Assembly (NCBI GenBank): GCA_035715365.1
Contig: DASTLB010000022.1
Coordinates: 80,242 to 144,241 of the forward strand
DNA: 64,000 nucleotides
Origin: Kofleriaceae bacterium
Lineage (GTDB): Bacteria > Myxococcota_A > Polyangia > Haliangiales > Haliangiaceae
Direction: 5' to 3'
Shown: piece by piece, positions 56,230 through 56,480 of the stretch
Layout of the letters: the number at the start of each line of letters is the position of its first letter
Numbering within the stretch: the first letter of the stretch is position 1
Position numbers and translations under genes: made by a program
Notes under the pieces: model-generated
What the model saw: only the letters and a program-made list of their open reading frames with translations
What the model was told of the DNA's origin: nothing
Databases searched by the model: none

Positions 56230-56480
56230 TACCACGCGCGGCCCGTGCCGGACACCCCAGACTGACCGCGTCCCGGACACCGTCCCGGACACGTTCGCGC
56301 CCCCGACACCGGTGTCCGGAATCGCGCTCGCCGGACGCCGCGAACGACGGCAGTTGCCGGCGGACATTCGACTGTCCGGCGGTGTCCGGTCGGCCGCGCA
56401 CGATCTCGCCGACTTCGCCGGACGCGGCGCTGGCACCGGACGTGCTGCCGGACACCTGCGGACGACTGTCCCGGCCACGT
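56230..56480. promoter_or_regulatory. divergent intergenic region packed with CCGGACA(C)/TGTCCGG motifs, including a perfect 12-bp tandem repeat and palindromes
   Basis: CGTCCCGGACAC occurs twice in tandem at 56269-56292. Palindrome GACACCGGTGTC near 56304-56319. CGGACA-N6-TGTCCG near 56365-56382. Several further half-sites. GC3 is non-coding. Confidence 0.4.

Follow-up and report, generated by a model that had tools for sequence, protein, structure and literature searches.

The sigma-54 holoenzyme forms a closed complex that opens only with an AAA+ enhancer-binding protein, normally bound to repeated sites 80-150 bp upstream. Myxococcota possess rpoN and unusually many enhancer-binding proteins (EBPs) (PMC12316311), and predictions for Desulfovibrio place most EBP sites no more than about 100 nt from the promoter and a few downstream of it (PMC4641369). 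Among the closest described systems are the PexR-controlled katB/ahpC promoters of Myxococcus xanthus, where the activator's sites are three to five short GC-rich repeats (dyads) arranged in tandem in an intergenic region of less than 300 bp (PMC12754779), and the Nla28 promoters of the same species, with two to five half-sites of 7-8 bp in direct repeats at spacings from N4 to N67 (PMC9765219). At the enterobacterial glmY/glmZ genes, three TGTC-N10-GACA dyads for GlrR/QseF lie upstream of a conserved sigma-54 promoter, with a site for integration host factor (IHF) between (PMC3045617). Here we describe a control region in a 64-kb stretch of DNA from the metagenome-assembled genome of a Kofleriaceae bacterium of the Haliangiales, Myxococcota (contig DASTLB010000022.1, positions 80,242 to 144,241; hereafter the window, whose coordinates are used throughout). 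An array of the heptamer CCGGACA and its complement TGTCCGG fills the intergenic gap in front of a gene for a secreted phospholipase D (PLD). It accompanies a conserved promoter of predicted sigma-54 type, which was not mentioned in an earlier annotation made from the letters of this DNA (the sequence-only reading). The heptamers are most likely the predicted sites of a sequence-specific DNA-binding regulator, for which a bacterial EBP (bEBP, an NtrC-family AAA+ activator) is the likeliest candidate. To the more definite reading, that the upstream part of the array forms the enhancer sites of a putative bEBP acting at the PLD promoter, we give an even chance.

The gap extends from 56220 to 56507 (288 bp). 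Its seven exact heptamers span 56248-56454, with + strand copies at 56248, 56273, 56285 and 56448 and - strand copies at 56313, 56373 and 56383. Degenerate copies are CCGGACG at 56331, 56418 and 56436, CGGACG at 56459 and TGTCCCGG at 56467. Counted from the T of TGGCA in the promoter, copies start at -183, -158 and -146 (+) and -118 (-), and nearer to it at -70 (+, a 6-mer), -58 and -48 (-), +5 (degenerate) and +17 (+). The features of the gap are as follows.

56248..56254, + strand: CCGGACA site S1, at -183 from the T of TGGCA, a member of the distal cluster.
56269..56292, + strand: perfect tandem (CGTCCCGGACAC)x2, with sites S2 (56273-56279) and S3 (56285-56291).
56305..56319: palindrome GACACCGGTGTC (56305-56316), a GACA-N4-TGTC at -126, overlapping site S4 TGTCCGG (56313-56319, - strand).
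56357..56389: proximal cluster at enhancer position, spanning -70 to -48 from TGGCA and matching in position the ortholog sites at -83/-73/-63.
56361-56366 (+ strand) and 56373-56379 (- strand): sites S5 and S6, forming the everted dyad CCGGCGGACA-ttcgac-TGTCCGGCGG of the proximal cluster.
56383-56389, - strand: site S7 TGTCCGG, after the everted dyad in the proximal cluster.
56402..56417, + strand: conserved box GATCTCG-N5-TTCG between the site array and the promoter, from alignments.
56431..56446, + strand: sigma-54 (RpoN) type promoter TGGCACCGGACGTGCT, TGGCAC-CGGAC-GTGCT, with GG at -24 and GC at -12.
56448..56454, + strand: promoter-core CCGGACA site S8, at about -9 to -3 of the predicted start site.
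56457..56507, + strand: predicted 5' leader of about 50 nt, from sigma-54 geometry; its box and Shine-Dalgarno sequence are conserved in long-leader loci.
56459-56474, 56472-56490 and 56497-56501, within the leader: CGGACG...TGTCCCGG, the CGGCCACGTCACTAGCCAC box and the Shine-Dalgarno sequence AAGGA, respectively.

The element at 56431-56446 is the predicted, conserved sigma-54 -24/-12 promoter of the PLD gene and the organising feature of the gap. Its GG and GC are exactly 10 nt apart, it differs by one mismatch from the consensus TGGCAC-N5-TTGCW as quoted in PMC9765219, and its spacer contains CCGGACG (56436-56442). A lone match of this kind is not above chance, as the window holds 13 consensus matches with up to two mismatches against 14.8 expected at 70% GC, and the assignment is therefore founded on conservation. 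We aligned the DNA upstream of orthologous or paralogous PLD genes, taken from genomes and metagenomes, first for 12 loci and then for 22. Two blocks do not vary in the 22 loci, TGGCA and, six bases further, (C)GTGCT, at a mean column identity of only 36%, and the element sits in the correct orientation 12-95 nt before each PLD start codon. The pattern TGGCAY-N6-TGCW matches once per 9-kb locus, always directly 5' of the PLD gene. It is kept in two loci (L018 and L056) with about 45% identity and AT-richer upstream DNA, both lacking CCGGACA, and variants of the form TGGCCC-N5-GTGCW are found in further Polyangiaceae-type orthologs of Myxococcota. A scan of the region for sigma-70-type promoters gave no match. 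By sigma-54 geometry, transcription would begin near 56457, 12 nt past the C in the -12 element. In the box that separates the array from the promoter, GATCTCG-N5-TTG, one T of the TT is invariant and GATC is largely conserved; its position may suit a DNA-bending protein. We rejected it as a canonical IHF site, as its ATC-N8-TT is two nt longer than the consensus WATCAR-N4-TTR (PMC3045617).

The array stands out strongly from the base composition of the window. There are 33 exact heptamers in the window against about 11 expected under a first-order model, 13 of them in two clusters (the gap and a coding repeat at 39.1 kb); with these two excluded, a background of 20 against 11 remains. CCGGACAC occurs 16 times against 4.1 expected, a count reached by none of 100 shuffles. 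The densest 210-nt span holds seven heptamers in the gap and at most three in any of 300 simulated 64-kb sequences (Markov-1). Chance or composition as the source of the cluster is thus ruled out by the shuffles and simulations. Translation of the gap is ruled out by the flat GC content over the three codon positions (0.70/0.73/0.74, versus 0.62/0.46/0.93 in the PLD gene) and by the non-conserved distal part. The missing coding periodicity bears out the sequence-only reading, which had called the gap non-coding. The tandem, the palindrome and the CGGACA-N6-TGTCCG (56361-56378, within a longer dyad at 56357-56382) that it listed are all present, at slightly corrected coordinates. Its count of at least five further half-sites holds only if degenerate copies are included, there being just three further exact heptamers. 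GTCCGGAC, which it described as itself palindromic, is absent from the gap and occurs in the window once, at 63478.

In related loci, CCGGACA is tied to the promoter. In 19 Kofleriaceae-type loci, the window's own genome excluded, the stretches from -120 to +60 around the T of TGGCA (3.55 kb in all) hold 34 exact copies, and the other 107 kb hold 12. CCGGACA is enriched 86-fold near the promoter (naive Poisson P about 5e-53); this P value, like the apparent 10-bp phasing of the sites, is overstated because the loci are phylogenetically related, although the effect is still very large. In an unbiased k-mer scan of promoter regions against flanks, CCGGACA was the top heptamer (34 versus 0.41 expected), ranking higher than words of the promoter itself. 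It is preferentially extended to (G/A)CCGGACA; the base 3' of ACA is free, and there are no consistent flanks beyond. Upstream copies peak at -83 (-) and at -73 and -63 (+) from TGGCA, corresponding to about -109 to -89 from the predicted start. Downstream, 13 of 20 Kofleriaceae-type loci carry a + strand CCGGAC between +17 and +40 of TGGCA, concentrated at +18/19 and +29, and five loci, including the window, have CCGGAC within the -24/-12 spacer. Steps of about 10 nt between the preferred positions suggest that the sites lie on one face of the helix. The layout varies among loci. Seven carry TGTC-N9/10-GACA dyads at -73 to -85 (the N10 form only in L002 and L047, the N9 form in five), others carry direct repeats 10-19 nt apart, and the window has everted dyads of the forms GACA-N4, N6 and N12-TGTC. 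Multiple operator sites for a dimeric regulator, as proposed by the sequence-only reading, are thus upheld as to the sites, which are conserved in position and sequence upstream of orthologs, and not as to the dimer, for which there is no fixed geometry.

The gene neighbourhoods show to which gene the module belongs. Both paralogous PLD genes of one metagenome-assembled genome (MAG) carry it (L003 and L010). In L004, the upstream neighbour is co-directional and ends in a terminator-like hairpin, and the whole module lies within the next 250 nt. In L002, a LOR-family gene is upstream of the PLD gene; in the window it is downstream. Judged by these arrangements, the module belongs to the PLD gene and stays with it when neighbours change. 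The idea of a divergent promoter has to be given up, as the module persists beside different, often co-directional upstream neighbours and the array goes with the PLD gene. The promoter itself reaches beyond the motif. Five Polyangiaceae-type PLD orthologs (L018, L056, L019, L020 and L057) keep TGGC[AC][CT]-N5-GTGC[TA] and have no CCGGACA; L018 and L056 instead have a GGATCC-type sequence at the enhancer position, which in L018 is a GGATC/GATCC inverted repeat. Therefore, sigma-54 control seems older than the activator motif.

The upstream copies fit an enhancer role in position, number and conservation, and on these grounds we read the array as an enhancer. At least two copies lie upstream and are conserved in orthologs, between -48 and -183 in the window and at the three upstream peaks in the orthologs. 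The upstream activating sequence would comprise the copies at -48 to -70 and, in this genome, four more at -118 to -183. An activator would oligomerise on these copies, and the intervening DNA, including the GATCTCG-N5-TT box, would bend so that the activator could contact the closed complex of the sigma-54 holoenzyme. The spacer copy and the copy at -9 to -3 are in approximately the same helical register, and there the same protein or a partner may silence or tune the promoter. The control region would serve the PLD gene and probably also the small lipoprotein gene that follows it. The other near-consensus sigma-54 promoter of the window (47461-47446, - strand) lacks CCGGACA, indicating that the motif is promoter-specific.

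Besides the relatedness of the loci and the chance-level frequency of consensus matches, several observations weigh against the enhancer reading. The sites are not confined to the upstream side, since copies occur in the spacer (56436), at -9 to -3 (56448) and, in orthologs, at +18/+29. Orientation and spacing differ between loci, and the window has no TGTC-N9/10-GACA dyad. L002, L047 and L013 carry TGTCA/TGACA dyads upstream in place of CCGGACA. A search restricted to the GAFTGA signature found no gene encoding it in the window or beside the Kofleriaceae orthologs. At a possible second target, the CCGGAC copies at 19398-19436 are not conserved in orthologs, save one locus with CGGACAGTCCGG. 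Two candidate regulators were considered and set aside. A bEBP gene at the Labilithrix locus L030 lies 1.5 kb from the PLD gene, with another gene between and no sigma-54 site seen there. An orphan GAF-domain sensor histidine kinase (50102-51463, - strand), about 5 kb off, has no response regulator nearby and no visible link to the array.

Some of these observations would also be explained by a conventional factor other than a bEBP, such as a repressor, anti-activator or co-regulator, that coats the region from about -110 to +10 through the heptamers and controls access to the sigma-54 promoter, while the activator binds elsewhere or has no DNA-binding domain. Copies overlap the core promoter (in the spacer in five loci and at +17 to +40 in 13 of 20), orientation and spacing are flexible, and the GAFTGA search found no bEBP gene nearby, all of which suit such a factor. 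However, the best-conserved copies are at the classic enhancer distance, and a sigma-54 promoter requires an activator, for which no other repeated upstream motif was found to serve. The copies on the core promoter are unexpected for a pure activator, and their simplest account is that the same protein also sits on the promoter as a dual repressor/activator; bEBPs of this dual type are documented, for example PexR (PMC12754779). We hold the conventional factor to be the main rival, possible but with the balance of evidence tilted against it.

The distal cluster (56248-56319), with its 12-bp tandem duplication, is present only in this genome (in the window and in L001) and looks like a recent expansion of the array. 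Its four copies lie 29-100 nt from the start codon of the divergent lipoprotein gene (55914-56219), and they occur only in the one genome where this gene is the upstream neighbour. They might accordingly be operators of the lipoprotein gene, the tandem 12-mer included, and lie outside the PLD enhancer. We find this unlikely. Neither a sigma-70-like nor a sigma-54-like promoter for the lipoprotein gene was found by a scan and by inspection of the minus strand, and in L002 a homolog of the lipoprotein gene stands beside the PLD gene with no CCGGACA within about 400 nt upstream. Moreover, the positions -118 to -183 are still within enhancer range of the PLD promoter.

The possibility that the cluster works as RNA, in a leader or small RNA, or is a small mobile or REP-like (repetitive extragenic palindromic) repeat family, appears very remote. 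Its copies are numerous and inverted, and the whole gap folds slightly better than shuffled sequences (z = -2.25), a marginal stability that stems from the inverted heptamers. Rfam yielded no match, shuffled versions of the predicted leader fold better than the leader itself (z = +1.27), and the distal part of the gap is not conserved in orthologs. Clusters of at least three CCGGAC within 60 nt number only three in the 64 kb (the gap, 39046-39124 and 19398-19436), and as one of these is coding, the family of small repeat elements suggested by the earlier annotation can be rejected. The promoter-proximal heptamer is 5' of the predicted start in the window and in short-leader loci, and 3' of it in long-leader loci. 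Since it can fall on either side of the predicted start, it acts as DNA and not as RNA.

Leader length differs among the loci. The leader box CTCGACTAGCC (CACTAGCC in the window, within 56472-56490) is found in the leader of long-leader loci; in four short-leader loci it is upstream of the promoter, where a longer unit, CCGGACAAGCC, is present in a diverged copy that aligns with it. In the PLD loci L005-L008, L014, L048, L050 and L052, the start codon comes 14-15 nt after the C of the -12 GC, and there is no Shine-Dalgarno sequence. The same arrangement is found at 19509-19539 of the window and in L085-L089. A sigma-54 transcript from such a promoter is predicted to have a leader of 1-3 nt and to be effectively leaderless. 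Orthologs of two unrelated genes share this near-leaderless geometry. For myxobacteria, leaderless mRNAs have been proposed to arise from sigma-A promoters (PMC12754779).

The genes around the gap, together with the coding repeat at 39.1 kb, are listed below.

55914..56219, - strand: gene divergent from the PLD gene, for a small Cys-rich lipoprotein (101 aa) whose signal peptide is of the lipoprotein type.
56508..57908, + strand: the PLD gene, encoding a 466-aa secreted lipoprotein (lipoprotein signal peptide) that belongs to the phospholipase D / HKD superfamily (Pfam PLDc_2, E = 3.5e-12).
57938..58291, + strand: second small Cys-rich lipoprotein gene, from a gene call in L001, 30 nt past the PLD stop codon.
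38383-39612: lipoprotein open reading frame (ORF), 409 aa, with a P-D-T peptide repeat VPDTPDTRVPDT...VPDTPDTDV (39046-39135) and an N-terminal (SGSA)n tract.

PLD orthologs occur in Kofleriaceae, Polyangiaceae and Bdellovibrionota, and the closest are from Kofleriaceae and Haliangiales MAGs (67-78% identity). The gene at 57938-58291 is probably co-transcribed with the PLD gene. Its product is paralogous to that of 55914-56219 (42% identity, with the common motif ADRACACxxKxDTACAK), and neither small lipoprotein has a Pfam match. Apart from the window's genome, only L002 and L077 have a small lipoprotein gene adjoining the PLD gene; the side differs, and in most loci this neighbour is not conserved. 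As partners of the PLD enzyme, the paralogous small lipoproteins could inhibit it, confer immunity or act as chaperones.

Two other places in the window had been linked to the gap by the sequence-only reading. At 39051-39135, where it noted the motif in codons for VPDT, the codons do contain CCGGACA. Coding periodicity there is normal, which marks a peptide repeat, and we therefore reject a link to the gap module, to which this repeat looks unrelated. The hairpin at 22225-22355, said to be flanked by the same motif, is a single-copy inverted repeat in the window and also looks unrelated. Its 25-nt arms (22235-22259 and 22307-22331) lie between convergent genes and are unique in the window, and 11-nt direct repeats GATCCCGGACA flank it (22224-22234 and 22345-22355). 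The inverted repeat may be a bidirectional terminator or an insertion resembling a miniature inverted-repeat transposable element with target duplication; the flanking GATCCCGGACA copies may be a coincidence or a target-site duplication.

The third cluster, the only non-coding one besides the gap, consists of three GTCCGG at 19398-19436, 75-110 nt upstream of TGGTCCACGCGTTGCT (19509-19524). The latter precedes a lipoprotein gene (ATG at 19537) in a neighbourhood of pseudopilin, DPBB and GspD genes, and five orthologous loci conserve both its GG-N10-GC element and the fixed spacing between that element and the ATG. The 19537 gene is only a candidate for a second target of the putative CCGGACA regulator.

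Further elements were seen elsewhere in the window. In the segment 47190-47470 (- strand), the near-consensus sigma-54 promoter TGGCACGTCGACTGCT (47461-47446) precedes, in this order, some 45 nt of leader, an AGGAG ribosome-binding site and a small ORF; no CCGGACA lies upstream. The product of the ORF, MKTISLETLVTVTGG|VNGKDGGC..., contains FPGPRNP repeats and looks like a peptide precursor with a double-glycine leader. A 17-nt box, TGGCCANTCGNNTNGCC, occurs upstream of different genes at 48704-48720 (- strand) of the window, at 3902-3918 of L004 and at 884-900 of L086-L088. In the window, where it is upstream of a discoidin-domain protein gene, and in the PLD leader of L004, it is followed by ATGTCCG(G).

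A bolder version of the enhancer reading takes CCGGACA as the specificity of a novel EBP of the Kofleriaceae clade that binds enhancer and core promoter on the same helix face, both silences and activates, and has a small regulon of secreted proteins or lipoproteins. This regulon would include the PLD enzyme and possibly two more products, the lipoprotein at 19537 near the type II secretion genes and, at 48.6 kb, the discoidin-domain protein. In several genomes, the promoters concerned would fire 1-3 nt ahead of the start codon and yield leaderless mRNAs driven by sigma-54. Taken as a whole, this version seems doubtful.

Kofleriaceae are uncultured or barely studied predatory myxobacteria, and to our knowledge nothing has been reported on the control of their secreted hydrolases. 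A conserved sigma-54 promoter with a 7-bp motif may provide a synthesisable handle for finding the cognate regulator and for predicting its regulon in MAGs. The family-level pattern, with sigma-54 control of the PLD family apparently ancestral across Polyangia and the activator motif turned over between families, would make these loci an example of enhancer rewiring. Two features depart modestly, and testably, from textbook sigma-54 architecture: motif copies placed in the core promoter and, among relatives, start codons so close to the promoter that almost no leader would remain. A literature search found nothing relevant on CCGGACA as a bacterial regulatory motif.

Among known systems, the PexR promoters offer several likenesses: a sigma-54 promoter of Myxococcota in a short intergenic region, a similar set of short GC-rich repeats as activator sites, an activator that also represses through copies overlapping a promoter, and leaderless transcripts, which have been proposed in PexR systems (PMC12754779). 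However, pexR usually adjoins its target, whereas the GAFTGA search found no bEBP gene near the array; PexR represses an overlapping sigma-A promoter and not the sigma-54 core promoter; and its targets are peroxidases, whereas the target here is a secreted PLD. The PexR dyad CACCG-N6-CGGTG has no match with one mismatch or fewer in 56220-56507. The Nla28 promoters (PMC9765219) are similar in being sigma-54 promoters with a few short half-sites in direct repeats at flexible spacing, and one listed promoter has GTGCT as its -12 element. They differ in their half-site, CT(C/G)CG(C/G)AG, and no promoter-overlapping copies are described for them. We also considered an MrpC-type site, GTGTC-N8-GACAC, and rejected it, as the base 3' of ACA varies among orthologs and the N8 spacing does not occur.

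The GlrR/QseF dyads of glmY/glmZ (PMC3045617) have their counterpart in the seven related loci with TGTC-N9/10-GACA at -73 to -85. A GlrR/QseF site in the window was rejected, as the TGTC-N10-GACA dyad is absent, only everted GACA-N4/6/12-TGTC is present, and the core is CCGGACA. In addition, the GlrR sites are all over 100 bp upstream of the promoter, with none overlapping it, and the conserved box between array and promoter here does not fit the IHF consensus. Enhancers of the FleQ/DVU1063 type also have activator sites on the downstream side of the -24/-12 element (PMC4641369), but those sites are 40-70 bp downstream, while here a copy lies within about 10 nt of the predicted start, alongside upstream copies. 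Compared with these systems, the architecture of the PLD control region is that of a familiar sigma-54 control region, and what is new is its recognition motif and the putative regulator of that motif.

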